Below, piece by piece: positions 13,126-31,101 of a DNA stretch of 31,572 nucleotides. How positions within the stretch are numbered: the first letter of the stretch is position 1; the number at the start of each line of letters is the position of its first letter. Location of the stretch: NCBI GenBank assembly GCA_947630315.1, contig CANRHA010000001.1:1-31572 (forward strand). Reading direction: 5' to 3'. The DNA is from an uncultured Clostridia bacterium (GTDB lineage: Bacteria; Bacillota; Clostridia; Oscillospirales; Ruminococcaceae). The notes below the pieces were generated by a model. It was not told where the DNA came from, did no database searches, and saw nothing but the letters and a program-made list of their open reading frames with translations. Position numbers and translations under genes: made by a program.

Positions 13126-13132
13126 CAATTAT

Positions 13133-14170: not shown

Positions 14171-14548
14171 ATGAAAGTAAAATTTAAAAGCAGAGGAGAC
14201 TGGACAAAGACAAAAGAGTTTCTTAAGATGGATCCATCAAAGAAATTTAGAAGCATAATCGAAAGATATGCACAGCTTGGCGTTCAAGCTCTTACTGCCG
14301 CTACTCCTGTTGATACCGGAAAGACAGCTGATTCTTGGGGGTACGAAATAGAGTATGGCGATGGAAAAACTACTATATGGTGGACAAACTCCAATGTAAA
14401 TGATGGTTTCTCCATTGCTATACTTATACAATATGGACACGGTTTGGCCGACGGAACTTATGTTGAGGGGAGAGATTACATAAATCCGGCCATTAAGCCA
14501 ATTTTCGATGGCATTGCCAAAGACATCTGGAAGGAGGTTTTTAGATGA
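14171..14548 (+). CDS. HK97 gp10-like tail component
   Basis: ALTAATPVDTGKTADSW, IAILIQYGHG, GRDYINPAI motifs. Confidence 0.75.
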   Translation: MKVKFKSRGDWTKTKEFLKMDPSKKFRSIIERYAQLGVQALTAATPVDTGKTADSWGYEIEYGDGKTTIWWTNSNVNDGFSIAILIQYGHGLADGTYVEGRDYINPAIKPIFDGIAKDIWKEVFR

Positions 14549-17500
14549 GCGAAGTTGTTGATAGAAGAGTCGTCTCTATGGAGATGAACAACGAACAGTT
14601 TAAAAGAGAAGCAGAAGCAACAATAAAAGAGCTCGAAAAATTGGAGAAAAGTGTAGACACCAAGGGAATGGAGAAAAACTTATCTTCACTTGAGAAAGTC
14701 ACATCTTCAATAAGCCTCGATGGATTGGCAAAAGCTGTCGATAAGATTAATTATCGTTTCTCGGCTTTAGGAACCGTGACCGATCAGATTTTTCGTAACA
14801 TAACAAATTCTGCAATATTAGCAGGAAAGAGAATGATCAAAGCTTTGTCTACAGACCCTCTTATGGATGGGTTATCAGAATACGAGACAGAGATAAACGC
14901 TGTTAAGGTAATAATGGCAAACCTTCCAGGAGTAACACAAGAAGAAGTGAATGATACACTTGCGGAACTGAATGAATACGCAGACTTAACTGTTTATAAT
15001 TTTGGTCAGATGACAGATGCAATAGGTAAGTTCACAGCAGCTGGTGTAGATTTAAAAACATCAACGGCAACAATAAAAGGTTTGGCGAACGTTGCAGCTG
15101 GTGCAGGTGTAAGTAACACACGATTAGCGGGAGCATACATACAGGTTTCCCAAGCTCTTCAAGCAGGAGTATTCAAACTACAAGATTGGAACTCTATGCA
15201 ACAGGCTGGTCTTGCTAACGAGGAATTTAGAAATAGGTTACAAGATACAGCAATAGAGATGGGCATACTTACAGGCAGGGTCGATAACTTCAGAGATTCA
15301 TTGAAAGACGGTTGGCTAACAACAGAGGTATTTACGAAAACTCTTGAAAAAGCAGCAAGCACAGACAACGAATGGGGTAAAAGACTTACGGCAGCAGCAA
15401 CCGAGGTAACCACTCTGACTCAGTTAATCGGTGTGCTTAAGGAAGCTTTAGGAACTGCTTGGGCCACTAGCATAAAGTATGTCATAGGTGACTTCACAGA
15501 GGCAAAGGCTTTGTTTACTGGTATAAGTGACATACTTTCAGGTATTATTAGCGGCTCTGCTGAAGCCAGGAACATAGCGCTAAAAGAGTGGCACGATATG
15601 GGCGGTCGTGAGGAGTTACTTAAATCGTTAGCTAACTTATTCGCGGCCATATACTCTATCATATACCCAATAAAGAAAGCTTTTAACGACACATTTCAGT
15701 CCATAACAGGAACTGGTTTGCTCGGACTAACTCGTTCGTTTTCAGCATTTACTAAAAGTCTAATACAGAATGAAGATGTAATGAACGGAATCTACAGCAT
15801 AGCTAAGGTACTCGCAACCGCATTGAAAGCAGTCTTTACAGTAATCAAAATGGGACTAGGAGTATTGGGAACGGTTCTAAAAGTAGCAGGAAGTCTCCTT
15901 CAAGCTCTTGTGATTATAGTAGGAAACCTCGCAGCTTTGGTAATACCTTTAACGCAAGCAATAAAACAATCGAAGATATTTCAGAGATTAATGGCGGCAT
16001 TCAACAAAATAGGAAACAGAGTTGTTAATACTCTTACTAACATAGTGTCTGCTATAGCTGGCTTTGTAGCATATGTATTACAACTTCCAATTCTTGGGGA
16101 TATTTTCAATTTGCTGTACAGCCTGATTTACAAGGTAGCCGATGCAATAGTTACAATAGTGGAAGCTATCGCGGATTTCGATATTCATAACATTGGCGGA
16201 TGGTTTAATGATCTTGTAAATAAACTGTCTCAGATATTTAGCTTTTCTAAGGAGTTCAAGACTCTTGAGAATATTATAAAAGGGTTCGGAACCGTTGTTA
16301 GTGGGGTAATAGGAGGAATTATAGGACTTTTAGGAACTCTAATTTCAACGATATTTAACGTTGGAAGCGAGTTCAAAACTTCGTTTTCATTTTTTGATAT
16401 AGGAAATTCAATTGGTGGTGCTTTCGTTTCCGCTATAAGCTTTATCATACAGAGCTTCAGAAATTTAGGAGCTGGGATAAAGAGTGCGTTTTCTTCTGAT
16501 AAAACGGGACAGATACAATGGGTTATTGACAAAATTATAGGTCTCAAAGATACGATCGTCGACGTCGTAAAGTCGATAGTTAATACAATAAAGAAGATAA
16601 ATTGGAATAAGTTATTTGCTTTTACGATTTCTATGGGATTGGTTATATCATTGTATCAATTGTCTAGTGGTCTGAGATCAATCGGAGAAGGTATTGAGAG
16701 TTTATCTGACGCAGCAAAAATATTGTCAAAGGCACTTAAAAAGAAGTTTTCAAGAACTCAGAGCACCATACGAAGTATAGCTATTCTTATCGGAACTTTG
16801 ACAGCTTCAATAAAAGTGTTATCGACAATACCGGCTGAAGACTTGAAGAAAGCTACTATTAGTTTAGCAACGATAATGGGAATATTCCTAGTATTTGAAG
16901 CGATACTGGTAGTAATGGAACTGATAGTCAAAAAATTAAAGCTGGGCGTTAGAATGCAGATGGCAACAAAAAGTATAGCTGCTATAGGAATAGCTGTTGC
17001 TGCTATGGCTGCTTCTTTGTATATACTCAAAGATGTTCCTGCTGGTTGGGATTTAGTTGGAAAGATGACTGCTCTTCTGACTTTGATGGTCGTGTTTGGA
17101 GGAGTTATAACGGTTGCATCTCGGTTCGGAGGAAATAAACTTACGAATTTCTTATCAATACTTGCTATGGCTTTTGCCATCGACAAGATTGTGGATGTGT
17201 TTGCAAAATTTGCTGATGTTCCATTAGATGACATAAAAGACAACATTAAAAATTTCATAGGACTTATGGCTGGTCTTGCTGTATTATTCCTTGGCATAGG
17301 TCAGATAAAAATAAGAGGCGTAGTTGGTTTAATAGCTATGGCTTATAGCATAGATGCAATAATAGAAGCATTGGAAGCATTTGGCAAAGCTGATTTATCA
17401 GGACTTAGAAAACAGTTATTGCTTCTTTCTCCGTTACTAATAGCTTTGGGTGCTTTCTGTTTAGCTGCTCTCAGTATTACCAAAAACGTAAAATTTGGTG

Positions 17501-20500
17501 GGGGATTAGCTACAGTTGGTGCTGGAGTAATGGGAATAGCTGTTGGAGTAGCGGTACTCATTGCGGCTCTTAATCTGTTTCCGAAAGAAGGCTTTGACGT
17601 TGGACCTTTCGCGGAGCTTATAACGTCCTTAATAGTTATATTTGGTGCGATAGGCGTACTAATTGGTGTTATTGGAAGCTTCAATAAAGCAGCAGACGGT
17701 AAAGCCTTGAAGGGTGCCGCAGGTACGTTGCTAACGATGGCTGTACTTGTAGGTTCTATAGCATTGTCGCTGGCAGTATTTGCTTTGATAAAAGATCCAG
17801 CTGATATTTTAGCAGGTATGGTTGCCATTAGCACTATACTGATTTCATTTAAGTATTTACTTAAAGAAATAAACGGTATGACATCTGCAAAGCGAGCAGT
17901 TTTGGTATTAGTTCTTATGATTGCTGAGCTTGCAGCAATTACGATATCTTTGTCAGCTCTTATGGCGTTTGATTGGGGACAATTGGCTTTACGAGCAGTT
18001 GTAATTGCTTCTACAATTGCTGCTTTGGCGACAATCGCTACGATATTTGCTAAGAAGTTTAATTTTCCAACAGGACAAATAGTTAAGTCGTTAGCTACTT
18101 TAGGCATTATGACCGCGATATTTGCAATTCTTGGGGTTGTTCTTGGAGCTCTAAACAGGTTAGCTCCGGATGCTACGTTATTTATGGTGCAAGCCGGAAG
18201 TATTGTTGTAGCCATAGGTATGATGGCATTAATTATAGGTCTTCTGTCACAATTTGGAGGAGATAACGTAGCTGTAGCTGGTAGTGCTCTTATGAAAGTG
18301 TCAATAGGTATTGCTGCTTTAGCTGCTGGTATGGCTTTATTGGGTGCTGTTGATATTCGTACGGGAACAATATGGGCTTTCGTAGGAGCTGTAACGGTTT
18401 TAACAGCTGTCTTTGGGGTTTTATTAGCAGTTATACAATACGCTAATTTGGAACCAGCTTTACTTTCGTTAAGTGCATTCGTTAACGGAATTTCTGAAGC
18501 TTTATTAAATTTTGGAAAGAGCGCCGCATTATTTGGTGTTGCAGTATTGGCGTTTGCCAAAGCTTTACAAATGATAAGTCAGATTGGTCAGGAGGAACAG
18601 CAGAACATAATAAATACTTTTACAGCACTTGGTACTGGTATAATAAGCGCTGTGGGTGTAATAATTATTGGGCTTGTTGATTTACTTACGATGGGATTAT
18701 ATACTCTGGTTTACAACGCGGTAGAGACTATAAAACACATATTCTCTCCCGAAGATGCTCAACTTATCACGATGAACATTAACAACGGCGTCATTTCGAT
18801 AATAGATAGTGCAGGAAACGCTATAGCTTCTGCTTCTTTAAAAGCAGGTCAACAGGCAAAAGAATCACTTGAACAAAATATGCCGGGGGAGAAAGAGGGA
18901 AAGGAGCAAGCCAAAAGTTATACGAATTCATTTACTTCAGGAACTCAGTTCTCAACAACACAAAGGTCAGAAATTGCTAAAAACGCAGGAGCTGGAACTG
19001 GATATTTTGTAAACACAGTTGAAAAGGATGTCGCTCCAAAGGCTAGAGTGGTTGAAGAAGAAGCTAGTAAATTACCAGAGGCTCAAGTAGAAGGTCTTAC
19101 AAAAATTTCAGCAACAGATACAGCGGAAGTACGAGAAGCAGCTGCTCAAGAGGTAAATGCTTGGTACGCATCTGCTGAACAGTCTTTAAATGATACAGAA
19201 ATATCAATGGTTAAGGACTGGAAGAAACTTGATGACGTTACCAGTACTAATATGCTGTATGTTCTTAAGCACATATACGAGGACGGAAACCAGATTCTAA
19301 TAGACGCGAATGGCGAAATGCAAGTAGTATCAAGAGAAACTGGCGAATCAGCTAAGCAAACAATACAAGATTACTTTGGAGTCGTTGATGCCAATATGGT
19401 ATTCTATTCCGAGGAAGCAAAACAGAACGCTAAAGAGGCAGGAAAGAAACCTTGGGATGGCTTCGTTGAGGGATTCGTAGATCAGGGGAATCAGATAATT
19501 AATCAGTTAAATTCTCAACTTGGTAGTGCTGGAATTGATCTGAGCAAAGGTATAGACCTTGGAAGTGGTGACAAAGTAGCTGAGACATTCTATAATAAGT
19601 TCCTGCCGAAGGATGAAGATAAAGATGGAGCGGAATCTTTCGTTGATGATTTACAGCAGAAGATAGAAGACATTACTAATAGTTTTGGTGATCTTGGATC
19701 ATCGTCCGGTGCAGGCGGAGCAACTAAAGCTGTAAAAGAATTCGAAGACACCATCGTTGAAATACCCGACATAAATGACACGGTTAATTCGTCGATGGAA
19801 AAATTCATAATAAGCTTCGCAAAAGCCCAAGAGACCATAGCTAATCCAGATTTACTTCCTGCTTTGCAATCAGGTTACAACGAATTCATCGAAATGCAAT
19901 ACAATACGTGGGCTGCAACGGATGACGGAATACAAACGATAAAAGAAGAGGAAGAGGAAATAGCAAGATTGACAGAAGAAGCTCTAGAAGCAGGTGTTGA
20001 CTTCGACGCTGAAGCTAAGAGAACACAATACAGACTTAGAGATATGGCTAATGCTTGGAATGAATTACGCAATACTCTTGTGGATACTGTTCAAGGACAA
20101 ATTGATATTTTCTCGGAATTCGACAAAAAGACAGAATTGTCTTCAGAACAGCTTATAAACAATATGAGGTCACAAATCGAAGGCGTTAAAGAATGGGCTG
20201 ACAATCTTACTATCTTGACGCAAAGAGGTTTGAGTGAAGGCCTGTTACAAAAATTGTCTGAGATGGGTCCTCAGGGTTATGAGTATGTTCACGCTTTTGT
20301 AGAAATGACAGCAGATCAGTTAAATCAGGCAAATCAGCTATTTGCTCAATCTACAACATTATCTGATGAAACAGCGGATCAATTACTTGCAAATTATGTT
20401 TATGCTGGTGCTATGACATCAGCAGGATTTATGCAAGGAATAGTTGACGGACAAACAGACGTTAATGCCGCTTGTGAGAATATGGGTTTGAGCGGTTTAG

Positions 20501-21336
20501 CAGCTTTGAAGAGTGTTCTTCAGATTCAGTCACCATCTCAAGAGACTTATGCCGTAGGTTCTTACTTGATTCAAGGTCTTGTCAATGGCATTACGGATTT
20601 CCAAGAGTCAGCTCTTACAACTATGAGAGAACTAGGTAAGGCATTAATCGAGAGTATGATTGAAGGAATGAAGTACGAAAGATTGTTTGTTAAGACTACA
20701 GCTGAAGAACTTGCTAAGAATGGTTACGACAGCATAAGAGGCAAATGGCAAGGGTACTATGATGCTGGTGTTTACGTAATTCAAAGATTCATAGATGGTA
20801 TGAATTCCAAGTACGATGATTTAGCTGCGGCAGCTTCAGCGTTGTCATCTTTAACTCTTGGAACTATGAGTGGTGTCTTAGAGGAAGCTTCTCCGTCACG
20901 TGCAACATTCAAAATAGGTGCATATGCAACAGAAGGCTTCATACTTGGTGTTAACAGTTATGCTGATCAGGTAAATGAGTCGACATCAAACTTAGGGTAC
21001 ATAGCAGCTAACAACTTAAGAAATGCCATACTTGCAATAAGTGAAGGTGTTGAAACTGACTTGAATATGGACCCTACGATAAGACCAGTTCTTGATTTGT
21101 CGAGAGTTACGCCACAAGCACAAAGAATAAATGCAATGTTCAGTAGAAATTTAGCAATAAAGGCTAATGCAGATGTTCAGCGTGCAGGTATAATTACAGA
21201 TTCGAACGGAACAACAGTAGCAGGCTCTCAGTATGTATTCAACCAATACAACACATCTCCGAGAGCTCTTGATAGAGTGGAAATCTACAGGCAGACTAGA
21301 AATCAGTTTGCTTCTTTTAGGGGGATGACAGAATGA
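14545..21336 (+). CDS. Tail tape measure protein (2263 aa)
   Basis: Tape-measure domain LNEYADLTVYNFGQMTDAIGKFTAAGV, long Ala/Gly/Ile/Leu hydrophobic repeats, two SPS...G...G motifs near the C-terminus. Confidence 0.95.
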   Translation: MSEVVDRRVVSMEMNNEQFKREAEATIKELEKLEKSVDTKGMEKNLSSLEKVTSSISLDGLAKAVDKINYRFSALGTVTDQIFRNITNSAILAGKRMIKALSTDPLMDGLSEYETEINAVKVIMANLPGVTQEEVNDTLAELNEYADLTVYNFGQMTDAIGKFTAAGVDLKTSTATIKGLANVAAGAGVSNTRLAGAYIQVSQALQAGVFKLQDWNSMQQAGLANEEFRNRLQDTAIEMGILTGRVDNFRDSLKDGWLTTEVFTKTLEKAASTDNEWGKRLTAAATEVTTLTQLIGVLKEALGTAWATSIKYVIGDFTEAKALFTGISDILSGIISGSAEARNIALKEWHDMGGREELLKSLANLFAAIYSIIYPIKKAFNDTFQSITGTGLLGLTRSFSAFTKSLIQNEDVMNGIYSIAKVLATALKAVFTVIKMGLGVLGTVLKVAGSLLQALVIIVGNLAALVIPLTQAIKQSKIFQRLMAAFNKIGNRVVNTLTNIVSAIAGFVAYVLQLPILGDIFNLLYSLIYKVADAIVTIVEAIADFDIHNIGGWFNDLVNKLSQIFSFSKEFKTLENIIKGFGTVVSGVIGGIIGLLGTLISTIFNVGSEFKTSFSFFDIGNSIGGAFVSAISFIIQSFRNLGAGIKSAFSSDKTGQIQWVIDKIIGLKDTIVDVVKSIVNTIKKINWNKLFAFTISMGLVISLYQLSSGLRSIGEGIESLSDAAKILSKALKKKFSRTQSTIRSIAILIGTLTASIKVLSTIPAEDLKKATISLATIMGIFLVFEAILVVMELIVKKLKLGVRMQMATKSIAAIGIAVAAMAASLYILKDVPAGWDLVGKMTALLTLMVVFGGVITVASRFGGNKLTNFLSILAMAFAIDKIVDVFAKFADVPLDDIKDNIKNFIGLMAGLAVLFLGIGQIKIRGVVGLIAMAYSIDAIIEALEAFGKADLSGLRKQLLLLSPLLIALGAFCLAALSITKNVKFGGGLATVGAGVMGIAVGVAVLIAALNLFPKEGFDVGPFAELITSLIVIFGAIGVLIGVIGSFNKAADGKALKGAAGTLLTMAVLVGSIALSLAVFALIKDPADILAGMVAISTILISFKYLLKEINGMTSAKRAVLVLVLMIAELAAITISLSALMAFDWGQLALRAVVIASTIAALATIATIFAKKFNFPTGQIVKSLATLGIMTAIFAILGVVLGALNRLAPDATLFMVQAGSIVVAIGMMALIIGLLSQFGGDNVAVAGSALMKVSIGIAALAAGMALLGAVDIRTGTIWAFVGAVTVLTAVFGVLLAVIQYANLEPALLSLSAFVNGISEALLNFGKSAALFGVAVLAFAKALQMISQIGQEEQQNIINTFTALGTGIISAVGVIIIGLVDLLTMGLYTLVYNAVETIKHIFSPEDAQLITMNINNGVISIIDSAGNAIASASLKAGQQAKESLEQNMPGEKEGKEQAKSYTNSFTSGTQFSTTQRSEIAKNAGAGTGYFVNTVEKDVAPKARVVEEEASKLPEAQVEGLTKISATDTAEVREAAAQEVNAWYASAEQSLNDTEISMVKDWKKLDDVTSTNMLYVLKHIYEDGNQILIDANGEMQVVSRETGESAKQTIQDYFGVVDANMVFYSEEAKQNAKEAGKKPWDGFVEGFVDQGNQIINQLNSQLGSAGIDLSKGIDLGSGDKVAETFYNKFLPKDEDKDGAESFVDDLQQKIEDITNSFGDLGSSSGAGGATKAVKEFEDTIVEIPDINDTVNSSMEKFIISFAKAQETIANPDLLPALQSGYNEFIEMQYNTWAATDDGIQTIKEEEEEIARLTEEALEAGVDFDAEAKRTQYRLRDMANAWNELRNTLVDTVQGQIDIFSEFDKKTELSSEQLINNMRSQIEGVKEWADNLTILTQRGLSEGLLQKLSEMGPQGYEYVHAFVEMTADQLNQANQLFAQSTTLSDETADQLLANYVYAGAMTSAGFMQGIVDGQTDVNAACENMGLSGLAALKSVLQIQSPSQETYAVGSYLIQGLVNGITDFQESALTTMRELGKALIESMIEGMKYERLFVKTTAEELAKNGYDSIRGKWQGYYDAGVYVIQRFIDGMNSKYDDLAAAASALSSLTLGTMSGVLEEASPSRATFKIGAYATEGFILGVNSYADQVNESTSNLGYIAANNLRNAILAISEGVETDLNMDPTIRPVLDLSRVTPQAQRINAMFSRNLAIKANADVQRAGIITDSNGTTVAGSQYVFNQYNTSPRALDRVEIYRQTRNQFASFRGMTE

Positions 21337-22361
21337 TTTATAGTATAACAGCTACAAATTATCTTGGAGAGTCAGTAGCACTTGAACTAGCGAGGCCAGA
21401 GACTTCTGGCTTCCTAGTTAAAAGTGTAACAGGTGCTGGACCGCCTCAAGCGGCAGTTAATATTACAGAAATAGCAACGGTTGACGGTGGAATATTTAAT
21501 TCATCAAGAGCAAAGACTAAAAACATAGTACTGCAATTGATATTTTGGCCTAAGGATAATGCAGAGACAATCGAAGAGATACGCCATAGGTCATATAAGT
21601 ACTTTCCGCTAAAGAAAAATCTAACTCTATTATTCAAAACTGATTTCAGAACAAGCTATATTGTTGGTTACGTTGAAAAAAATGAACCCAACATATGGGA
21701 CAAGCAAGAAGGATGCCAGATAAGTATTATTTGTGATACACCTTGGCTAAAAGACATAAAGCAAGACGAAACAGCTTTCTCTGGAGTTCGCCCTATGCTG
21801 TTCTTCCCTTTCTACAATAATCTTGTTGAGTATTCAAAGACTCGTTCAGCATTGACAGACAATAAGAAAGACAAGGTCAAAGATTCTGATATGGATGACA
21901 TAATTGCAAGGACTTACACTAGTACTTCGTGGCCCGAACGTCATATAATAATGGGTGAAATTGTAAAGAAATATTATTATACTGTGAACTACTCAGGAGA
22001 AGTCGAAACAGGAATTAACATTCTCATTCACTTAACCGGTCCTGTTGACAGTATAAATATTTACAACGTAACAACCAATGAAAAAATGACAGTAGACGGG
22101 GCTAAGATTGAAGAGTTTACAGGAACTGCTTTGAGAAAGAACGACGAGATTGTAATATGTACAGTTCAAGGTCAACGTTCGGCTAAGTTACTTAGAAGCG
22201 GAAAATACACGAATATATTTAATTGCATAACTAAAGAATCTGATTGGTTCCAGTTAGTTAAAGGTGTAAACGAATTTGCTTATACAACACCAAATGACAA
22301 AGACCAAGCAGATTTAGTTCGTTTCCAAATTGTAAATGATATTTTGTATACAGGTATTTAA
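21333..22361 (+). CDS. Distal tail protein (Dit)
   Basis: Follows the TMP with ATGA overlap; TIEEIRHRSYKYFPLKK, GYVEKNEPNIW, WFQLVKGVNEF. Confidence 0.85.
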   Translation: MIYSITATNYLGESVALELARPETSGFLVKSVTGAGPPQAAVNITEIATVDGGIFNSSRAKTKNIVLQLIFWPKDNAETIEEIRHRSYKYFPLKKNLTLLFKTDFRTSYIVGYVEKNEPNIWDKQEGCQISIICDTPWLKDIKQDETAFSGVRPMLFFPFYNNLVEYSKTRSALTDNKKDKVKDSDMDDIIARTYTSTSWPERHIIMGEIVKKYYYTVNYSGEVETGINILIHLTGPVDSINIYNVTTNEKMTVDGAKIEEFTGTALRKNDEIVICTVQGQRSAKLLRSGKYTNIFNCITKESDWFQLVKGVNEFAYTTPNDKDQADLVRFQIVNDILYTGI

Positions 22362-22378
22362 AAAAGGAGGCGATTTAT

Positions 22379-22591
22379 ATGAAACTCACAAATGCACAGT
22401 ACGACGTCATCAAATGGATTGCTCAGTATCTTCTTCCTGCTCTTGGCACTTTATATTTTGCCTTAGCAAGTATATGGGGCTTGCCTTATGGAGAGGAAAT
22501 TGTAGGTACTATAACTGCTCTTGATACTTTCTTAGCAGTTATTATGGGTATAAGTACCAACACGTATAAGAAAGCTGGAGGTGACAAGTAA
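22379..22591 (+). CDS. Holin (Dp-1-type)
   Basis: 70 aa, two hydrophobic helices; YDVIKWIAQYLLPALGTLYFALASIWGLPYGEEIVGTITALDTFL; SD AAGGAGG. Confidence 0.88.
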   Translation: MKLTNAQYDVIKWIAQYLLPALGTLYFALASIWGLPYGEEIVGTITALDTFLAVIMGISTNTYKKAGGDK

Positions 22592-22797
22592 TGAAATTCT
22601 TACAGTATAATGAAGTAGTTACAAGAATCGAAAGCAAGCAGGACTTGAATAAGATATTTATGGCTGCAAAACCTACTGATGTCGGGGAGACTTGTTGCTC
22701 TAACATACCAAACATTATATTCAAGCCGCTTGGCACCAAGACGATATGCGAGATCACAAAGGACGACTCCATATTCATTGATATTTCAGAGGAGTGA
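22591..22797 (+). CDS. Hypothetical protein (68 aa)
   Basis: GGAGG SD, overlaps the holin stop; no recognised motif. Confidence 0.55.
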   Translation: MKFLQYNEVVTRIESKQDLNKIFMAAKPTDVGETCCSNIPNIIFKPLGTKTICEITKDDSIFIDISEE

Positions 22798-22802
22798 CTT
22801 AA

Positions 22803-23132
22803 ATGATCTCATTAGAAGCAATAATAACTATCGTGTGCTCTGTTTTGGCTTCTAGTGGATTATGGACATTTATTCTAAAAATTCACGACAAGAAGGATGC
22901 CAAGACAAAAATGACTTTAGGAATCGGTCACGACAGAATAGTAAAGATCGGAACCGATATTCTTGAACGGGGAGATTATATAAGTGAGGATGAGTATGAA
23001 AACTTACACGACTACTTATATTTACCTTACAAGGCATTAGGCGGTAATGGGTCTGCTGAGAAGATAATGCAGCAAATCGATCAGCTAAGAATTGTAAAGA
23101 CTCCTCATCCCGGTTCCAAACAAAAGGAATGA
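22803..23132 (+). CDS. N-terminally membrane-anchored lysis-cassette protein
   Basis: One TM helix (AIITIVCSVLASSGLWTFIL) and LYLPYKALGGNGSA motif typical of small genes beside Gram-positive phage holins. Confidence 0.65.
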   Translation: MISLEAIITIVCSVLASSGLWTFILKIHDKKDAKTKMTLGIGHDRIVKIGTDILERGDYISEDEYENLHDYLYLPYKALGGNGSAEKIMQQIDQLRIVKTPHPGSKQKE

Positions 23133-23160
23133 TAAGAGCTGATACCACAGCTTTTTATCA
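23130..23160 (+). terminator. Hairpin / possible intrinsic terminator after the lysis genes
   Basis: TGATAAGAGCTG-ATACCA-CAGCTTTTTATCA; core stem AGCTG/CAGCT followed by T residues. Confidence 0.45.
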
Positions 23161-23171
23161 GATATTGCACC

Positions 23172-23200
23172 TTGACAATTTAATAAAGTAATGATATTTT
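23172..23200 (+). promoter_or_regulatory. Candidate sigma-A promoter for the accessory cassette
   Basis: TTGACA (23172-23177), 17 nt, TATTTT (23195-23200) preceded by TG. Caveat: the predicted start site (~23207) would clip the SD of 23216. Confidence 0.4.
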
Positions 23201-23215
23201 TGGGAGGTAATCATT

Positions 23216-23737
23216 ATGCAAGGAAATCCACAAAATCAATTCAATAACAATCAGCAGTTCTCGAATTGGAACTACGATATGAGCTATCCAACACAGGGAT
23301 CTCAGCAGAACCAAGTAAATACACAGCAACCATTTTCTCACACTGCGACACAGCAACAGAACTGGTTAAATAATCAGCAATCTGTCGGCTTTACTCAACC
23401 AAGCACTCAACAACAAAGATTTGTACTTCCTGGTCATTTAGTAAATGATATTTCGGAGGTGCAGATCAACGAGGTGCCTATGGATGGGAGCTATAACGTA
23501 TTTCCTCTTCGCGACCTGTCTGCAATTTATTTAAAATTTTGGGATAATGACGGACGGTTTAAAACCAGACGTTATGTCCTTGTAGATGATACGCAATCTC
23601 AGAATGTCGAAAATCAAAATCAGACCCAAATGGACGAAGTTATGTCCAAAATCACATCACTAGAAAGTATGGTGAAGAAGATTCTTAGAAAGTCATATAA
23701 AAATGAATCAAAAGGAGGAAATAACGATGCAAAATAA
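23216..23737 (+). CDS. Cassette gene 1: Q/N-rich low-complexity N-terminus plus small globular domain (EVPMDGSYNVFP)
   Basis: SD GGGAGG; composition seen directly. Confidence 0.8.
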   Translation: MQGNPQNQFNNNQQFSNWNYDMSYPTQGSQQNQVNTQQPFSHTATQQQNWLNNQQSVGFTQPSTQQQRFVLPGHLVNDISEVQINEVPMDGSYNVFPLRDLSAIYLKFWDNDGRFKTRRYVLVDDTQSQNVENQNQTQMDEVMSKITSLESMVKKILRKSYKNESKGGNNDAK

Positions 23738-23930
23738 TTTCAGTATGCAAGTGCAGCAATTAATGCAAAGACCAGAGTTTCAAGATTCATTTGCTCAAAG
23801 TGGTTTGTCCGCGATTAGAGATATGGACGTAGCTCGTGGAGTAGAAATAGCTGATAATATTTGCAGAAGTTATGGACTATCTCGAGAGCAAATGATGCAA
23901 GGAATCGCTCGAACCATACAGAATAGATAA
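23727..23930 (+). CDS. Cassette gene 2: small helical protein (GVEIADNICRSYGLSREQ)
   Basis: AAGGAGG at 23712-23718 favours ATG 23727. Confidence 0.75.
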   Translation: MQNNFSMQVQQLMQRPEFQDSFAQSGLSAIRDMDVARGVEIADNICRSYGLSREQMMQGIARTIQNR

Positions 23931-23952
23931 AGAAAAGGAGGTAGAGAAATTT

Positions 23953-24753
23953 ATGTTAGGAGGAAATTCAGGAGCTTTCGGATTAGACCTCGGTGCATTG
24001 CTTGGTAACGCTCTTAGCAGAAGCGGTAGTGGCAATAATGGCGACTGGGGTGGAAACGGAGCTTGGTGGATCATCGTTATCTTATTTGCTCTTTGGGGCA
24101 GAAATGGTAACGGTCTGTTTGGCGGTGACAATGGAACCAACACACAGACAATTCCTGCAACAGCTGGAGACCTTCAGAGAGGCTTTGATACCCAGACAGT
24201 CGTTAACAAGCTTAACGGTCTTGAGAACGGCATCTGTAACTTAGGCTATGATCAGCTTTCTCAGATGAATGGTCTTACGAATACTGTTACTCAGACAGGT
24301 TGGGGTATTCAGCAGTCGCTTCAGAACCTTATGGTTTCGCTTATGCAGCAGGGATTCAATCAGTCTGCTCAGACGAAGGATTGTTGCTGTACAGTAGAGA
24401 ACTTGCTTCAGCAGGCTAACTACAACCGCCAGCAGGATACTTGCGCGATTACTACAGCTATTGACAGAATGGCTCAGAACATCATTGCTAACGACAATGC
24501 GAACTATCGTCAGTTGCACGATGAGAATGTTCAGCTTCAGATGCAGAACAAGGATGCTCAGATTGCAGCATTGACACAGCAGCTTAACCGTTGCTACGAT
24601 GACAATACAGCAAATAGTGTTGTTGCAAGATTGACGAACGTAATTAATCCGCCTGTTACACCGGCGTACATTGTACAGAATCCCAATGGTTGCAACTGCA
24701 ACAACAATAACGGATGCTGCAATAATAACTGGGGCAATGTAGCGTGGGGATAA
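23953..24753 (+). CDS. Cassette gene 3: Gly/Asn-rich N-terminus, hydrophobic WWIIVILFALWG segment, Q/N coiled coil with CCC, Cys/Asn-rich tail
   Basis: 266 aa, 10 Cys, tail CNCNNNNGCCNNNW; SD GGAGGT. Confidence 0.85.
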   Translation: MLGGNSGAFGLDLGALLGNALSRSGSGNNGDWGGNGAWWIIVILFALWGRNGNGLFGGDNGTNTQTIPATAGDLQRGFDTQTVVNKLNGLENGICNLGYDQLSQMNGLTNTVTQTGWGIQQSLQNLMVSLMQQGFNQSAQTKDCCCTVENLLQQANYNRQQDTCAITTAIDRMAQNIIANDNANYRQLHDENVQLQMQNKDAQIAALTQQLNRCYDDNTANSVVARLTNVINPPVTPAYIVQNPNGCNCNNNNGCCNNNWGNVAWG

Positions 24754-24879
24754 TTCAAAATGAGTAACCAATAATTGCGTTGAAACTTTATAGAAAGGAG
24801 TAGACCATCGGTTTGAACTAACGTTTTTCATTAAATTTTGTATGATTTGTTTTTCGTGTCTAATTCCTATTTAGAAGAG

Positions 24880-24920
24880 GCGGGCTCACTTCACTGGTTG
24901 TTGTGGGCTCGTTTTCTTTT
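24880..24920 (+). terminator. Rho-independent terminator-like hairpin between cassette genes 3 and 4
   Basis: GCGGGCTCAC (24880-24889) pairs with GTGGGCTCGT (24903-24912, several G-U) followed by TTTCTTTT. Confidence 0.65.
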
Positions 24921-24945
24921 ATATTTTCAGTAAGGAGGTATTTTT

Positions 24946-25356
24946 ATGATTATCGTATCTAATACGGCGGCTCAGACTTTACAGCCGGGCCAGGCGATTA
25001 CCTTTAATGAGGTACGTTTGAAAACTGGATGCGGAGAAGCGTTCAGAATGCAGACAGGTACCATTGGCTTAAGAAATAATGCAGCTTACAGAATCACATT
25101 CCACGCAAATGTAGGAGGTACTGTTGCTGCGGCTCCCGTTCAGCTTAACATACAGCTTGGGGGAGCATCTGACTTGACAACAACTATGATATCTACACCA
25201 ACAACAGCAGATACAGAGCTTAACAATGTTTCAGCCTCAACAGGTATTCTTACGGGTTGTAATGGACTTCCGAATACTGTAACTGTTGTAAATACGGGTG
25301 TTAATCCAATAATCATAGGTGCGAATCCGTCACTTATGGTTAATAGAGTAGGTTAA
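24946..25356 (+). CDS. Cassette gene 4: predicted beta-sandwich, BclA C-terminal/C1q-like
   Basis: 136 aa; QTLQPGQAITF, YRITFHANV, LTVVNTG-like VTVVNTG, ANPSLMVNRV strand pattern. Family call from memory of the pattern. Confidence 0.6.
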   Translation: MIIVSNTAAQTLQPGQAITFNEVRLKTGCGEAFRMQTGTIGLRNNAAYRITFHANVGGTVAAAPVQLNIQLGGASDLTTTMISTPTTADTELNNVSASTGILTGCNGLPNTVTVVNTGVNPIIIGANPSLMVNRVG

Positions 25357-25369
25357 GGAGGTGGACAGT

Positions 25370-26053
25370 ATGGGAGATATGAAAGAAACAGAATTCGGTC
25401 TTGAGGAGATTAAAGACCTTAAGAAAACATTAACGACTTGGCTCAGAGAAGAGATTAACTGTGGTAAGGATAATGTCCGTAACTGTGACATTGATACTCT
25501 TGCAAATGCTGTTCATCATCTTGCAGAAACGGAACGCAATTGCTATGAAGCTCTTTACTATAAAACAGTAACGGAGCAGATGGAGAACGCAGAAGAATCC
25601 CTTAGAATGGGTGCATCAAGAAGCAGAGATTCAATGGGACGATACACTTCAAGAGGATATACAACTTATCCTTATGACCAGATGGACTATGTTGATGCTT
25701 ATATCCACGATCCCAACCAGTTTATTGACGATATGATGCCTATGGGATACAGAAGTGGCAATCGTGGACGAAACAGCGGCGGTATGTCAAATAGGTCTGG
25801 GAATAATTCAAAATCAAGCAGCTATGGGTATCGTCCAATGGAAACAGAGTGGGATCAATACAGAATGGCAAAGAGGCACTATACTGAAAATGGGGATTCG
25901 GAATCAAGAAAAGAAATGAATAGCCACGCTATGAATCATTTCAAGGATTCTATCGGCACTTTCAAAGATATTTGGGAAGATGCAGATCCCTCTTTGAAGA
26001 TGGAAATGAAGAAGGATCTTCAGAATTTAGTTGCGGATATGCCAGTTAATTAA
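25370..26053 (+). CDS. Cassette gene 5: helical ends flanking a Met/Tyr/Arg/Gly/Ser-rich disordered middle
   Basis: AAGGAGG SD, ATG 25370; RSGNRGRNSGGMSNRSGNNSKSSSYGYR. Confidence 0.8.
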   Translation: MGDMKETEFGLEEIKDLKKTLTTWLREEINCGKDNVRNCDIDTLANAVHHLAETERNCYEALYYKTVTEQMENAEESLRMGASRSRDSMGRYTSRGYTTYPYDQMDYVDAYIHDPNQFIDDMMPMGYRSGNRGRNSGGMSNRSGNNSKSSSYGYRPMETEWDQYRMAKRHYTENGDSESRKEMNSHAMNHFKDSIGTFKDIWEDADPSLKMEMKKDLQNLVADMPVN

Positions 26054-26069
26054 AAGGCGGTGATGCTTT

Positions 26070-27083
26070 ATGGTTAGTTATGGTTTTTACAACTCCATAA
26101 ACTATGATCGACTATATGATGCAATGCAAATGGGAGAGATATTTGACGGTATAATTAATGATGGTATACTGTCACATTATGGGGAGGCTTTTGAGGTCTC
26201 CCCTGGCGGTGGTTTGTCAATAATTGTCGGCATCGGACGTTGCTGGTTTGATCACACCTGGACTCTTAATGATGCTGATCTCCCTATGGTACTTGAGCCT
26301 GCCGAGTTGGTACTTGACAGGATAGACGCCGTAGTTATCGAAGTTGATGCAAGAGACGAGGCAAGAAAAAACAGCATAAAAATTATCAAAGGAACGCCTG
26401 GAGATCCTGCTCAAAGACCCGAACTTACAAACACAGAATTAGTTCATCAGCACGCCATTGCTTATATTTCAGTGCCTGCTGAATGCAGAGAAATTAATCA
26501 AGGCCATATAACAGACAACAGAGGACAGGAAGATTGTCACTTTGCTGATGCTTTGCTTGATGTTATTGATGTAACTGAGTTAATGAAACAATGGCTGTAT
26601 CAATTCAATGAGTGGTTCAATGGAATCCAAAATACTGTCGAAAGATACTTAGCTATATTTAAAGGCTCGTTAATAGCTGGCGATACTGAAATCGTCATAA
26701 CTGACTTACCGCAAGTGACTAAGACTTTAGGAAATACGATGCCTGACCACGAATATATCATTACAAATAAAATAGGTCAAACAATTCACATAAGTATCGG
26801 TGACTATTGGATTAGCAAAGGTAAAATTTATAAAAGACTAAAAGAAGAGATTGACTGGAAAGTTGAAAAACAACATAACAGCCTTAGTGAATATCCTAGT
26901 GATTTATGGCAACTCGTAGACGACCCTCAAGACACAATGATAACAAAATACAGTGTATTATCTTTTTATACCTCAGTATGGGGTGTGGCTCCTAAGGAAG
27001 TTGAAGTCTTAAAAGGTGCTGTTAGGCTAAGATTCGAAAAATATACTTTTAACATTGATGTAGCGGTGAGTGTGGATGGCTAA
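26070..27083 (+). CDS. Baseplate upper (BppU-like) / receptor-binding adaptor protein
   Basis: GFYNSINYDRLYDA, IIVGIGRCWF, LDRIDAVVIEVD, SIKIIKGTP pattern of siphovirus baseplate proteins. Confidence 0.7.
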   Translation: MVSYGFYNSINYDRLYDAMQMGEIFDGIINDGILSHYGEAFEVSPGGGLSIIVGIGRCWFDHTWTLNDADLPMVLEPAELVLDRIDAVVIEVDARDEARKNSIKIIKGTPGDPAQRPELTNTELVHQHAIAYISVPAECREINQGHITDNRGQEDCHFADALLDVIDVTELMKQWLYQFNEWFNGIQNTVERYLAIFKGSLIAGDTEIVITDLPQVTKTLGNTMPDHEYIITNKIGQTIHISIGDYWISKGKIYKRLKEEIDWKVEKQHNSLSEYPSDLWQLVDDPQDTMITKYSVLSFYTSVWGVAPKEVEVLKGAVRLRFEKYTFNIDVAVSVDG

Positions 27084-27432
27084 GTATATAACCATAAACA
27101 ATTATATTTGGAAATTTCAGTTTACAAGACCGACAGATTATGTATTAATTGATAGAACAGGTTCTTTGTGCTATGCTACAACAGATCCAGTAACTAAGAA
27201 TGTTTATATTTCCAATGACATAATAAACAGAGACTTTTTACAAAGGGTTATATCTCACGAAATAGGGCATTGTGTGATATTTAGTTATAATCTTCTGCCA
27301 GTTATTCATAGGATGGTAATACCAGAATATTGGATCGAGGCAGAAGAATGGATCTGTAATTTTGTGGCTGACTACGGACCCGAAATACTTACAAAAATGA
27401 AGGAGGTAATCGAAAGTGGCCAATTTATTTAG
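27076..27432 (+). CDS. Small zincin-like metallopeptidase (HExxH)
   Basis: VISHEIGHCVIF plus downstream EAEEWIC. Confidence 0.7.
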   Translation: MAKYITINNYIWKFQFTRPTDYVLIDRTGSLCYATTDPVTKNVYISNDIINRDFLQRVISHEIGHCVIFSYNLLPVIHRMVIPEYWIEAEEWICNFVADYGPEILTKMKEVIESGQFI

Positions 27433-28003
27433 AGTTTCTAGCACCGCAATTCTTGACTACGTAATTGACAACATAGCAGAACCTTTTGATGCAGAAACGC
27501 CATTCGTAAAAGGCGACTATGTTATATATAATGACTTGTTATACGTATGCACTGCCGAAAAAGGTCATCTTGGTGTATGGAACGATTCAAACTGGAAGCG
27601 TACATATCTCAGCGAAATAAGCGACCTATTGAATGATATTGAACCTACACAAAACGGTATTAAAAAAGAGGAACAAAATCAGGCAACTGACAATCCTCGA
27701 ATTACCAATATAGCAGCTTTAATTCCGTATTTATTCCGTCGTTTAACGAAAGACGAAATATATATAAATGTTACTGGTAATAATGGAAAAACTACTGGTT
27801 ACGGTGGGGCTTCTAGTCCAGAAGAAAAATATGAAGGCAACGTCAGGTTACCTAGTAGAGTGGATTATGATTCAACAAATGGAACTCTAACGGCATATAT
27901 GACTGTCTCTGGTGCTGGGGACGGAAGCAAACTACACAATAACAATATGACTGCCTACTTCATACCTGGTGGGGCTAAGGATATAAGTGACCAATTCAAA
28001 TAG
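27416..28003 (+). CDS. Tail-associated protein with N-terminal CBM5/12-like motif
   Basis: FVKGDYVIYNDLLYVC...GVWNDSNW aromatic pattern. Confidence 0.6.
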   Translation: MANLFRVSSTAILDYVIDNIAEPFDAETPFVKGDYVIYNDLLYVCTAEKGHLGVWNDSNWKRTYLSEISDLLNDIEPTQNGIKKEEQNQATDNPRITNIAALIPYLFRRLTKDEIYINVTGNNGKTTGYGGASSPEEKYEGNVRLPSRVDYDSTNGTLTAYMTVSGAGDGSKLHNNNMTAYFIPGGAKDISDQFK

Positions 28004-28023: not shown

Positions 28024-31000
28024 ATGAAAATTTGTATAGTTGAAAAAGATTTCTCGATGCTCTATCCTGTAGAACATCACAAGTCGTTCATTTGGACTGA
28101 CCGATACGATACACCCGGCGATTTCGAAATCTATATTCCAATAGCAGCTGTATCAAGAGAGCATCTAAAAATTGACAATTACATAAGTTGTGATATGTCA
28201 GAGCATCTTATGATTATTGAAGACATCAAGACCGAATCTGATTTGGACAATGGAAATTTCTTGATAGTTACAGGAAAATCACTAGAATCAATACCATCAA
28301 GAAGAATAGTCTGGTATCCCATAACTTTCACAGATGAACCTCTTCAGAATGTAATAAAGACATTGCTTGAGAAGAACATAATAAGTCCTGAGGACACATC
28401 AAGAGCTATACCAAATTTTATATTTGAAGAAAGCACTGACGAAAGGATAACAAGCATAGACAAAGTAACTGTCTCGTATGCTATTGGAGATAACCTTGGT
28501 GATATTATTGAAGATATTTGCAAGACTTATCAATTAGGCTACAAAATCATTCCAAACGACGACAACCAATTTATATTTTCATTATTTGCTGGAACGGATA
28601 GGTCGTATGCTCAAGAAACGAATCCCTGGATTATATTTTCACCAAATCAGGACAACATTATATCTTCAAGGTTCAACGAGTCAACAAGCAATTATAAGAA
28701 TGTTACGCTTGTTATCAATGAAAAGACAACATATGACGAAGCTAATCCAGAAGGTGTCACTGAAAGGTCAGGATTAGTTCTTGGTTCAACAGCAGGTCTA
28801 TCTCGTCGTGAGACATTCACTGATGCTAGTGGGATTGATACAGACGAAGAAACCACACAACACGATTTACTAGCTAATATGCGAGTGGAAGGGTACAAGA
28901 CGTTAGCAGAATACAAATATGATAAGGATTTCGATGGAGAAATAGATTATATTCGTAGCTACCAATACGGAACAGACTTTTATATCGGCGATATTGTCGA
29001 GATACAAGATTTGTTCGGAAATGAAGGTAGAGAAAGGGTGACAGAGTATATGATTAAGGAGGACACAAACGGATTTGCTGCCTATCCGACTCTAACGTCA
29101 GTCGTAGAAGATACTGCTGGCGGTGGATATTCTTATGAGCTTAAGTTGGGCACCGAGCACGAGAATGCATTTTATGGTGATTGGGGATATGAAGCTTATA
29201 ACCACGCACATACAACAGGAAATCCTCATAACACAACTTGGTCAGATGTTGGAGCAGACGAACTCGGAGCAGCAGATAAGGCATATGAACGTGCTAAATC
29301 TGATGCTCAGACAATAGGAAATTCAGCTCTTAGAAACGCCAATACTTATACTAATAATCAGATCAAAAAATTAAAAGACTTAACTGCCAAAGACTGGCAA
29401 CCAGGGATTGATAGTGCTGTATTAGCAGGTGTTACAGAAGCTAAGACTTATACAGATGCTAAAAGTGCAGAGAATGAGGTATATACAGACCAAGAAGTTG
29501 AAAAAGCCAAGAATGAATTAACTGATTATACGGATTCCAAAAGTTCTGACGATAGAAAGTATGCAGACAGTCTTATAAAAGATTTGGTCGGACAAGCACC
29601 CGAAGAATTAAATACCATATATGAGTTGGCTCAAGCAATAAGAAATACGAGTGTAACTGATGCCTTGACGAGCAGAATTACTAGTTTGGAGAGTAGAAGA
29701 ACTTACTATGGAGATGTTTCATCTGGAAAAAATGGATGGGATCTTGTTACATTTCTAGGCCTCGATCCAAATACCCCAGTTCCCATAGCAGACATACTAA
29801 AAAAAATCTCAGAAAAAAGTCGTGGAGCAGCCATATGGGTAATAGGAAACAATTCTCAACCACCAAATGCTTATACAAATAGTCTTTTTGAATCTGGTAA
29901 CGCTGGTATATTATTTATGTATTCTGATTCTAATACTAAGACATCTCGATGGTTTTTAACATACGTCTTACTCACTAGCGGAAATAAATACACAAATGTA
30001 TATCGAGACGGTACTTTTAACACTTGGCGTTTGTTCACCGGCGGGTCCACTTTATTTAACCGCTATCCGTTCATAGATTCTAACGGTGTTATGGAAGTAG
30101 GCCGATATTTGGATTTTCATTATACTAGTGGAGAAACAAATGACAATTCAGCAAGACTTGAAGTCTCTGGGCAAGGGTTAGTATCAAGTGTAAATTTTGT
30201 TGCAAGATACGGCTCGACAGTTTGGCAGGAAAACGGCGCACGTCAGAACGGATATGTAAGATTGCTTACAATAACTATTAAAGATATTTATATGAATATG
30301 CCAATAGTCATAGAGCTTGCAAGACGAGCTGCACAGACGACTTGCACACTCTATATTGTTTATGCCAACGTAAAAAGCACTGACCCAGAACTCGGAACAT
30401 TTGTATATGAAGGAACTGACTATAATGCGCGTTTAGTCAAAACTGGAAGCGGAATTTGGGATTTGTATGCTTATAGGTCTGAATCATCAGACCATATAAA
30501 TATTGTAAGGCTGCACAAGCCACAGTTTATGAACGGAGTTACAATAACGTACAAAGGAAACGCCACTGGAACTGACGACCCGGGAGGAACTCACGCCACA
30601 TTTGGCGGACAAGCCGCAACCGAGATAAACTCACTAAAAAACTCTGTAAGTAATGGCAAGACATTAGTAGCCAATGCCATTACTAAAAAAGGAGTTTCAA
30701 CGGCTACAACAGCAGACTTTGCAACTATGGCAGAGAATATTGGAAAAATACAAGGTTCGTCATTAATGTTACTTCAAAGCGTTGATATATCTACTAAATT
30801 TACAGGATTAAGTAGTGATGTGCTTTTTAAAAACACTAGTTCTGAAAAAATGTTCATACTTATAGAATTGAAGGTAACCTGTAAGGAAGGTAATCATATA
30901 GAATATCTTAGAACTGAAAGCGAGTCGTTGACGTTAAATAATAAATATTTCACTATTGACGGTGTAGACGCCAAAGCCGAAATCACTTCAGCTTGGGGGC

Positions 31001-31101
31001 AATTTGTGAATGTGAATGAACAAATAAAAATTATTATTCAATCCTATAAAAGATTATATACAGGTACCATTACAGGAACAATAAAAAAAATCAATTTATA
31101 G
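28024..31101 (+). CDS. ReqiPepy6 Gp37-like baseplate hub (Tal) fused to a tail-fibre stalk and tip
   Basis: SFIWTDRYDTPGDFEIY, YQYGTDFYIGDIV, ERVTEY (Gp37-like); then HAHTTGNPHNTTWSDVGA, YTD repeats, APEELNTIYELAQAI, GVMEVGRYLDFH, NGKTLVANAITKKGV (fibre motifs). Confidence 0.82.
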   Translation: MKICIVEKDFSMLYPVEHHKSFIWTDRYDTPGDFEIYIPIAAVSREHLKIDNYISCDMSEHLMIIEDIKTESDLDNGNFLIVTGKSLESIPSRRIVWYPITFTDEPLQNVIKTLLEKNIISPEDTSRAIPNFIFEESTDERITSIDKVTVSYAIGDNLGDIIEDICKTYQLGYKIIPNDDNQFIFSLFAGTDRSYAQETNPWIIFSPNQDNIISSRFNESTSNYKNVTLVINEKTTYDEANPEGVTERSGLVLGSTAGLSRRETFTDASGIDTDEETTQHDLLANMRVEGYKTLAEYKYDKDFDGEIDYIRSYQYGTDFYIGDIVEIQDLFGNEGRERVTEYMIKEDTNGFAAYPTLTSVVEDTAGGGYSYELKLGTEHENAFYGDWGYEAYNHAHTTGNPHNTTWSDVGADELGAADKAYERAKSDAQTIGNSALRNANTYTNNQIKKLKDLTAKDWQPGIDSAVLAGVTEAKTYTDAKSAENEVYTDQEVEKAKNELTDYTDSKSSDDRKYADSLIKDLVGQAPEELNTIYELAQAIRNTSVTDALTSRITSLESRRTYYGDVSSGKNGWDLVTFLGLDPNTPVPIADILKKISEKSRGAAIWVIGNNSQPPNAYTNSLFESGNAGILFMYSDSNTKTSRWFLTYVLLTSGNKYTNVYRDGTFNTWRLFTGGSTLFNRYPFIDSNGVMEVGRYLDFHYTSGETNDNSARLEVSGQGLVSSVNFVARYGSTVWQENGARQNGYVRLLTITIKDIYMNMPIVIELARRAAQTTCTLYIVYANVKSTDPELGTFVYEGTDYNARLVKTGSGIWDLYAYRSESSDHINIVRLHKPQFMNGVTITYKGNATGTDDPGGTHATFGGQAATEINSLKNSVSNGKTLVANAITKKGVSTATTADFATMAENIGKIQGSSLMLLQSVDISTKFTGLSSDVLFKNTSSEKMFILIELKVTCKEGNHIEYLRTESESLTLNNKYFTIDGVDAKAEITSAWGQFVNVNEQIKIIIQSYKRLYTGTITGTIKKINL

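Follow-up and report, generated by a model that had tools for sequence, protein, structure and literature searches.

The DNA examined here is a stretch of 31,572 nucleotides (nt) from an uncultured Clostridia bacterium (hereafter the window) that holds the late region of a siphophage. At positions 23216-26053 it carries five adjoining genes, O1 to O5, all on the forward (+) strand, and these, together with a displaced gene for a small zincin metallopeptidase (N2, 27070-27432), are the window phage's copy of a portable accessory cassette of gut-anaerobe tailed phages. Inspection of the open reading frames (ORFs) and residue counts bore out the five genes and the compositions that an initial annotation had given them, although its limits were drawn too narrowly and left the zincin, the usual sixth member, outside. 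O1 (23216-23737, 173 amino acids, aa) consists of a Gln/Asn-rich disordered N-terminus (47% Gln+Asn over residues 1-68), a small conserved beta domain (VPMDGS...FP...IY.K.W..DG), a coiled coil and a basic tail. O2, listed as 23703-23930 (75 aa), is small, helical and Gln/Met-rich; its true start is likely the ATG at 23727, which has the better ribosome-binding site (AGGAGG) ahead of it and would yield a protein of 67 aa. A gap of 22 nt with a plain ribosome-binding site and no RNA leader leads to O3 (23953-24753, 266 aa), the core protein of the cassette, which is followed by the beta protein O4 (24946-25356, 136 aa) and by O5 (25361-26053, 230 aa), whose two conserved helical end domains flank a disordered Arg/Gly/Tyr/Ser/Met-rich linker that forms the middle third.

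The hairpin and the TTGACA box that had been described upstream of the block are both present on the + strand. The hairpin, found in a terminator scan, is weak (23137-23157, just 3' of the neighbouring gene U1; a 5-bp stem AGCTG/CAGCT and a T-run), so that termination there is only putative. The box belongs to a sigma-70-like promoter match (23172-23200; TTGACA-17 nt-TATTTT with a TG ahead of the -10 element, 10 of 12 positions matching), which is suggestive only, as the region holds 17 promoter-like matches against 11.2 expected. Another terminator-like hairpin occupies the O3-O4 spacer (24880-24927, + strand; a 10-bp stem including G-U pairs, a 13-nt loop and a U-rich tail), with the ribosome-binding site of O4 3' of it at 24932-24938. 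This spacer, 192 nt in length, contains no ORF running on into O4, recurs at other loci and is not unusually stable when folded in full (z = -0.89). An Rfam scan of 22300-27500 returned no match.

In line with the earlier remark that none of the five proteins resembles a siphovirus core gene, Pfam and PHROG assigned no tail, baseplate or head family to any of them. Pfam indeed matched none of the five, and the PHROG matches were all to families of unknown function: phrog_21718 (O1, weak), phrog_20810 (not significant), phrog_16490 (O3, E 2.7e-25) and phrog_20016 (O4, E 1.8e-11). Across Pfam, NCBIfam, PHROG and PADLOC, no structural, lysis, defence or spore family was matched by the five proteins, nor was any enzyme family, and no signal peptide was found in any cassette protein. 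PADLOC gave nothing meaningful: O3 scored against ZorA with a match of coiled-coil type (17 bits), alongside similar noise. Profiles of O1, O3 and O5 run against PDB sequences likewise picked up coiled-coil noise only, and O5 remained free of family or PDB matches, as Pfam applied to all of its relatives yielded nothing recurrent.

We gathered about 60 loci (labelled L###) from phage records, metagenome contigs and genomes and searched their ORFs with iterated profiles; the counts below refer to 52 of these loci. O3 was found at 51 loci, O1 at 47, O5 at 33, O4 at 29, O2 at 27 and N2 at 20. The genes lie on one strand in the constant order O1-O2-O3-O4-O5: O1, where present, is always upstream of O3, O2 (27/52) sits between the two, and O5 is directly 3' of O4 (33/52). 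The same genes in the same order thus recur on dozens of unrelated contigs at 25-60% identity, which is far beyond chance and establishes the co-conserved unit that the initial annotation had supposed. O1 and O3 form its invariant core, and O2, O4, O5 and the zincin are common, replaceable add-ons.

The position of the cassette is as variable as its order is fixed. At locus L056, a phage that is syntenic with the window phage (capsid fusion 59% identical, tail tube 43%, Dit 39%) carries it between endolysin and tape measure. The corresponding site in the window is vacant, the cassette lying instead between Dit/holin and the fibre genes. Elsewhere it occupies the fibre-to-holin interval, the side of an integrase gene or the interior of the head module after a small helix-turn-helix gene, giving at least five different positions in all, with holin or endolysin genes as frequent neighbours; at five loci (L003, L005, L010, L016 and L053) the alternative order O5-N2-U1-holin is seen. 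Such varied sites in otherwise syntenic phages indicate a portable accessory unit and not a part of the tail. We also noted homing-endonuclease-like ORFs that interrupt the cassette in two cultured phages, between O4 and O5 in Butyrivibrio virus Ceridwen (L073 6091-6954) and between O2 and O3 in Clostridium phage CPD1 (L074 4185-4835), and an insertion of about 1.2 kb that splits O3 itself at L042 (1023-1604 and 2856-3173).

O3, 16% Asn and 12% Gly, is laid out as an acidic Gly/Asn-rich N-tail, a hydrophobic segment (residues ~37-50), a Gln/Asn-rich helical domain, a coiled coil, a PxPxPAY..NP motif and a Cys/Gly-rich C-terminus that reads CNCNNNNGCC. Its ten Cys are at positions 95, 144-146 (CCC), 164, 214, 247, 249, 255 and 256. 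An alignment of relatives showed five of these to be invariant (C95, C144-146 and C164) and LQRGFD-, DTC- and NDNANYR-type motifs to be conserved as well, and nearly all homologues end in PxPxPAY..NP and a Cys/Gly cluster, with or without O4 at the locus. Over 218 relatives the N-tail averages 2.6 Asp/Glu versus 0.6 Lys/Arg, and the hydrophobic core measures 13-17 residues with slightly more basic residues after it. Clustering at 90% identity divides the family into 873 groups, and at 50% identity it has 2115 representatives (E<=1e-3); Atlas clusters are 83-100% viral as judged from the few members that have a record.

The beta-sandwich of the BclA C-terminal domain (CTD)/C1q type that had been proposed for O4 was upheld by structural modelling. 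The AlphaFold2 (AF2) model had a predicted local distance difference test score (pLDDT) of 93.5, and its best Foldseek match was the CTD of F-BclA (9H38; E 2e-9, template-modelling (TM) score 0.80), along with the BclA CTD (1WCK, TM 0.75) and ExsF/BxpB (9H3D and 8D02, TM 0.76); EDA and C1q came next. O4 is therefore confidently predicted to be a stand-alone BclA-CTD/ExsF-type jelly roll of the TNF/C1q fold with ten strands. An O4 profile run against PDB sequences also reached 9H38 (E 1e-3). The sequence evidence points the same way but does not reach the Pfam threshold: the window O4 does not match BclA_C (PF18573) at E<=0.1, six of 29 relatives do so weakly (best E 2.2e-4), and the best variant (from L022) scores 27.8 bits versus the Pfam cut-off of 38. 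The jelly roll begins at residue 1, and O4 has neither a collagen-like GXX stalk nor an exosporium-targeting N-terminus. Stand-alone O4-like forms of about 135 aa are common among the predicted structures of gut phages in BFVD, with top TM scores of 0.83-0.91.

N2 (27070-27432, + strand, 120 aa) carries an HEIGH motif and a downstream EE, and its homologues directly follow O5 at most of the 20 loci that have one. Five residues (H63, E64, H67, E92 and E93) are invariant among 15 sequences, so that a conserved HExxH and a downstream acidic third ligand, as expected of a zincin, are both apparent in the alignment. SprT-like and Peptidase_M78 models weakly match 11 and 10 of the 15 relatives, respectively (best SprT-like E 6e-6), and N2 weakly matches the minigluzincins 4QHJ and 4JIX. 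Other slots of the cassette can be filled by different proteins. A second small helical family (f8) takes the position of O2 at some loci, and the O4 slot may hold a beta-rich protein of about 125 aa (L021:2062-2451, L024:8704-9111, L074:5544-5921 and ten more, alignment A6) that has Cys clustered at its N-terminus (C..C..C); the gene after it often encodes a helical protein with a weak match of rubrerythrin type. No relation of this alternative protein was detected to O4, against which it was run with hhalign, or to solved structures. One cassette variant is often preceded directly by a gene for a protein of about 122 aa (L015:3364-3729, L073:3716-4093 and 12 others), which matches no family but has a papain-like pattern (GDC..RA ... 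GH.V ... D.W.S).

The initial annotation had pointed to similar, uncharacterised clusters in gut clostridia and their phages, and database searches with O3 showed such clusters to be common in gut phages. With the window O3 as query only uncultured gut phages were retrieved; tblastn with more divergent O3 members also reached cultured phages: Bacteroides phage C3_41T2LP, Butyrivibrio virus Ceridwen and six phages of C. perfringens, along with at least six crAss-like genomes. Throughout these carriers O3 keeps its hallmark Cys and tail motifs. Downstream of its endolysin gene Ceridwen carries O1, an O2-slot gene, O3, O4, O5 and a further usual neighbour. C3_41T2LP, isolated by plaque formation on its host Bacteroides uniformis, has an O3-centred cassette, and its O3, like that of the crAss-like phage cr116_1, retains every hallmark (Cys, tail motifs). 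In both phages O3 is followed by a Cys-containing beta protein and an O1-like protein (small domain, coiled coil, basic tail), then by a short charged helical protein (Arg/Asp/Tyr- or Glu/Lys-rich) and an HExxH protein; these partners were assigned by inspection, except for O3 itself in both and the zincin of C3_41T2LP (E 6e-4). Carriers are found among temperate as well as virulent phages, with hosts in Clostridia, Bacilli-class Firmicutes and Bacteroidales. Among the loci examined the cassette was never seen outside phage DNA; O3 was found in five of 301 Lachnospirales genomes and in none of 60 relatives of the window's genome. A literature search turned up no paper describing the cassette.

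The window is a complete 31.6-kb contig of a metagenome-assembled genome (MAG) of 1.88 Mb that is 76% complete and encodes SpoIVA. A 63.5-kb contig (L009, CANQQE010000013.1) includes a stretch identical to the window, and was binned in a rabbit-gut MAG labelled 'Muribaculaceae'; a bin titled 'Alistipes sp.' (L029 / G364) carries the cassette yet also encodes SpoIVA. Host calls from MAG labels are unreliable. The phage genes in the window begin with a large terminase (2016-3758), a portal (6858-8108), a protease-capsid fusion (8108-9919) and a tail tube (11010-12092), and continue with an endolysin (13067-14149) in an unusual place, with tail-assembly genes on one side and the tape measure (14545-21336) on the other. 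The endolysin lies far from the holin, and in the relative at L056 a CHAP endolysin is found in that unusual position too. Dit (21333-22361), for which no close relative was found in the viral contigs searched, precedes the holin (22379-22591), a small ORF (within 22379-23132) and U1 (22803-23132; phrog_4105, with an N-terminal membrane segment), all three on the + strand, frequent neighbours of the cassette and outside its core. The cassette had been placed between lysis and baseplate genes; this holds for the holin directly upstream, but not for the distant endolysin. On the 3' side a fibre-like gene (26070-27083) separates O5 from N2, which is followed by a gene for a 195-aa protein and by a Tal-like minor tail protein gene (28024-31101). 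The window lacks the small regulator of sigma-region-4/GerE-like type and the other accessory families that adjoin the cassette at other loci.

Taken as a whole, these data are best explained by a portable phage cassette that builds a stalk-and-knob assembly late in infection, for the phage and not for the spore, a reading to which we assign a probability of roughly 0.45. The cassette, a block of five to seven genes, would encode no enzyme except the small protease, and its product would be a structural assembly formed late in the lytic cycle. O3 may be held at or in the cytoplasmic membrane via its short hydrophobic segment and form a helical stalk studded with Cys, to which O1 and O2 would be obligate partners. 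O4, as a trimer, would act as terminal knob or docking adaptor and O5 as a flexible linker, and the zincin might trim one of the low-complexity parts. Since signal peptides are lacking from all cassette proteins, assembly would take place intracellularly and the structure would reach the outside only when the cell lyses; it would benefit the phage itself rather than the host spore. The conjunction of these proposals, i.e. an anchored stalk-and-knob assembly that is non-enzymatic (bar the protease), belongs to the late lytic cycle and benefits the phage, is held more tentatively still, at clearly less than even odds. Several points weigh against it. O4 is missing or replaced at about 40% of the loci, so that the knob is not essential; the AF2 model of O3, built on a 26-sequence alignment, was unusable (pLDDT 43), and because O3 could not be modelled the 'stalk' derives from predicted helices and composition; membrane anchoring and topology of O3 are uncertain because the hydrophobic core spans only 13-17 residues and the charges flanking it are weakly informative; and the recurrent position beside holin or endolysin genes fits a role in lysis equally well.

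Control of lysis, or a virion-associated or post-lysis matrix, is together nearly as likely as the stalk-and-knob assembly. If the cassette were a lysis-control or envelope module, O3 would act like a class III holin/antiholin or an i-spanin, its partners would tune membrane failure and its Cys might sense redox. The short N-tail, single hydrophobic segment and large Cys-bearing helical domain of O3, an architecture that we take to resemble that of the T4 holin T and the lambda i-spanin Rz, would suit this role, all known carrier hosts are strict anaerobes, the cassette adjoins holin and/or endolysin genes in the window, at L003-L007, L010, L016 and L053-L057, in Ceridwen and in cr116_1, and U1, with its membrane segment, and a holin are often found directly 3' of N2. 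Against this, PHROG revealed no match to a lysis family, canonical holin and endolysin are already present in these phages, the cassette also resides far from lysis genes (on the integrase side, in the head module or near recombination genes in C3_41T2LP), known lysis systems feature neither a TNF-fold knob nor partners rich in Gln/Asn or Arg/Gly, and accessory genes of any kind commonly insert at the ends of late operons; on its own we deem this explanation unlikely. A similarly low likelihood attaches to a virion-associated or post-lysis extracellular structure, be it fibres or whiskers or a Cys-rich matrix that would remain reduced in the anoxic gut and cross-link in air, sticking virions to debris or mucus or encasing them. 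In favour of it, collagen-like phage fibres and spore fibres usually end in the O4 fold, the cassette runs in the direction of the late genes and often has fibre genes next to it, Cys-rich termini are universally conserved and all carriers are phages of gut or rumen anaerobes. Against it, the cassette lacks fibre repeats and a collagen stalk and can do without O4, its site may be in the head, tail, lysis or integrase region, which does not suit a fixed virion part, and the literature search produced no virion proteomics or other study of the proteomes of any carrier. A bolder version, which we regard as quite improbable, is a redox-armed device special to phages of strict gut anaerobes, in which the invariant Cys clusters of O3 would stay reduced in the cell and the anoxic lumen and cross-link in oxygen (e.g. 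when shed from the animal), locking virions and membrane debris into a protective, adhesive matrix with TNF/C1q-fold knobs, like an occlusion body, or in which lysis would be redox-gated.

Two further explanations involve lysogens. The initial annotation had proposed a kit that modifies the spore surface, and lysogenic conversion remodelling the host's spore coat or exosporium would agree with the composition of the cassette proteins, which recalls coat and exosporium proteins, with F-BclA, BclA and ExsF/BxpB as top structural matches of O4, with the lack of signal peptides, which fits assembly in the mother cell, with SpoIVA in the window's own genome and with a carrier prophage that interrupts sigG. 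The cassette is not restricted to endospore-forming hosts, though: it occurs in crAss-like phages and in cultured phages of non-spore-forming Bacteroides (C3_41T2LP) and Butyrivibrio (Ceridwen), which argues for a role in the service of the phage and against a spore-surface kit. The initial annotation had itself listed frequent occurrence in such phages as a finding that would refute the spore link, and this is what the searches returned. Ceridwen has been observed to grow only lytically (PMC7372960). One 1.2-Mb genome (G717) has three copies of the cassette and no detectable SpoIVA or Spo0A. In one class-level sample SpoIVA was present in four of five carriers versus 123 of 399 genomes (31%) overall, a weak enrichment that is confounded by relatedness, the exception being G717; in Lachnospirales the carriers match the SpoIVA baseline, and SpoIVA carriage is uninformative there because 87% of genomes have it anyway. 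Moreover, Pfam, NCBIfam and profiles against PDB sequences detected no homology of O1, O3 or O5 to CdeC, CdeM, ExsY/CotY or ENA proteins (DUF3992, DUF4183), and no sporulation-type promoter has been shown, so that a spore kit appears hardly credible. Slightly less remote, yet still very improbable, is a moron that lysogens would express, providing superinfection exclusion or defence. The promoter-like site and the hairpins around the block in the window, the membrane-type hydrophobic segment of O3 and the several prophages in which the cassette adjoins the integrase or attachment site could be read in this way; opposed to it are the want of meaningful PADLOC matches, the presence of the cassette in virulent crAss-like and lytic phages (PMC7372960) and, at many loci, a spacing to neighbouring late genes too tight for a separate promoter.

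Several observations on sporulation genes were made along the way. In Lachnospira intestinalis CLA-AA-H89B sigG is split into a 3' part (model positions 90-253) and a 5' part (2-97) that lie 56.6 kb apart on the same strand (L018 6302-6790, - strand; G061:C1:254415-254906 and G061:C1:311522-311809); a cassette-bearing prophage lies between the halves, with the cassette at the prophage edge adjoining the 3' part of sigG. At least seven of 151 sampled Lachnospirales genomes have a spoIVA gene broken near model position 402-412, with the last 85-94 codons 8-90 kb away on the same contig (e.g. G146:C1 74981-76186 / 38852-39133; also G103:C54, G149:C40, G191:C4, G123:C6, G199 and G076), and these breaks look like candidate intervening elements. 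In the window's MAG (G000), four separate ORFs, each about 155 aa long, match Spo0A solely over its DNA-binding C-terminal portion (model 144-257; C240:2482-2823, C48:2066-2398, C195:3024-3356 and C152:3369-3701), and no full-length Spo0A was detected in this 76% complete genome.

The order of the block is kept in thousands of gut phage lineages, from siphophages of Clostridia to Bacteroides and crAss-like phages, and must therefore matter for the life of gut phages. Cultured and tractable carriers, Ceridwen on Butyrivibrio fibrisolvens and C3_41T2LP on Bacteroides uniformis, make direct testing possible. The case also warns against reading BclA-fold or Cys-rich low-complexity proteins in phage genomes as spore biology.

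Compared with known systems, the cassette combines familiar elements in an unfamiliar setting. With BclA, F-BclA and ExsF of the B. cereus-group exosporium and F-ENA (1WCK, 9H38, 9H3D, 8D02), O4 shares the fold and the approximate size. Like ExsF it is a stand-alone domain, and a Cys-rich protein is encoded beside it; ExsF works with ExsY/CotY, an arrangement to which we liken that of O4 and its Cys-rich neighbour. Unlike the BclA-type domains, to which it is just 16-22% identical, O4 is phage-encoded (including in Bacteroidales and Butyrivibrio phages) and optional within its cassette. The papers on F-ENA and A-ENA, which cover the closest structural relatives of O4, contain no phage cassette (PMC12357932, PMC13111695). 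The C1q/BclA knobs on collagen-like phage fibres (annotated in BFVD as 'collagen triple helix repeat' or 'C1q domain') have the same fold and likewise belong to tailed phages, but there the knob is fused to a long repeat stalk in the tail module, whereas O4 is a separate 136-aa protein in a mobile block and has as its partner a Cys-rich protein with a hydrophobic segment. N2 shares HExxH and a Glu pair within about 110-130 residues with SprT-like and M78 (ImmA/IrrE) proteins and with the minigluzincins (selecase, projannalysin); in contrast to these known minimal zincins the window N2 matches no curated model, and it sits in a late accessory block and not beside a repressor. Finally, O3 has the overall architecture of T4 T and lambda Rz and is often located beside holin and endolysin genes, with no homology to them detectable by PHROG. 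It differs from both in its Gly/Asn-rich flanks, invariant CCC, Cys/Gly tail and four or five dedicated partners, and it is found in phages of monoderm and diderm hosts alike.

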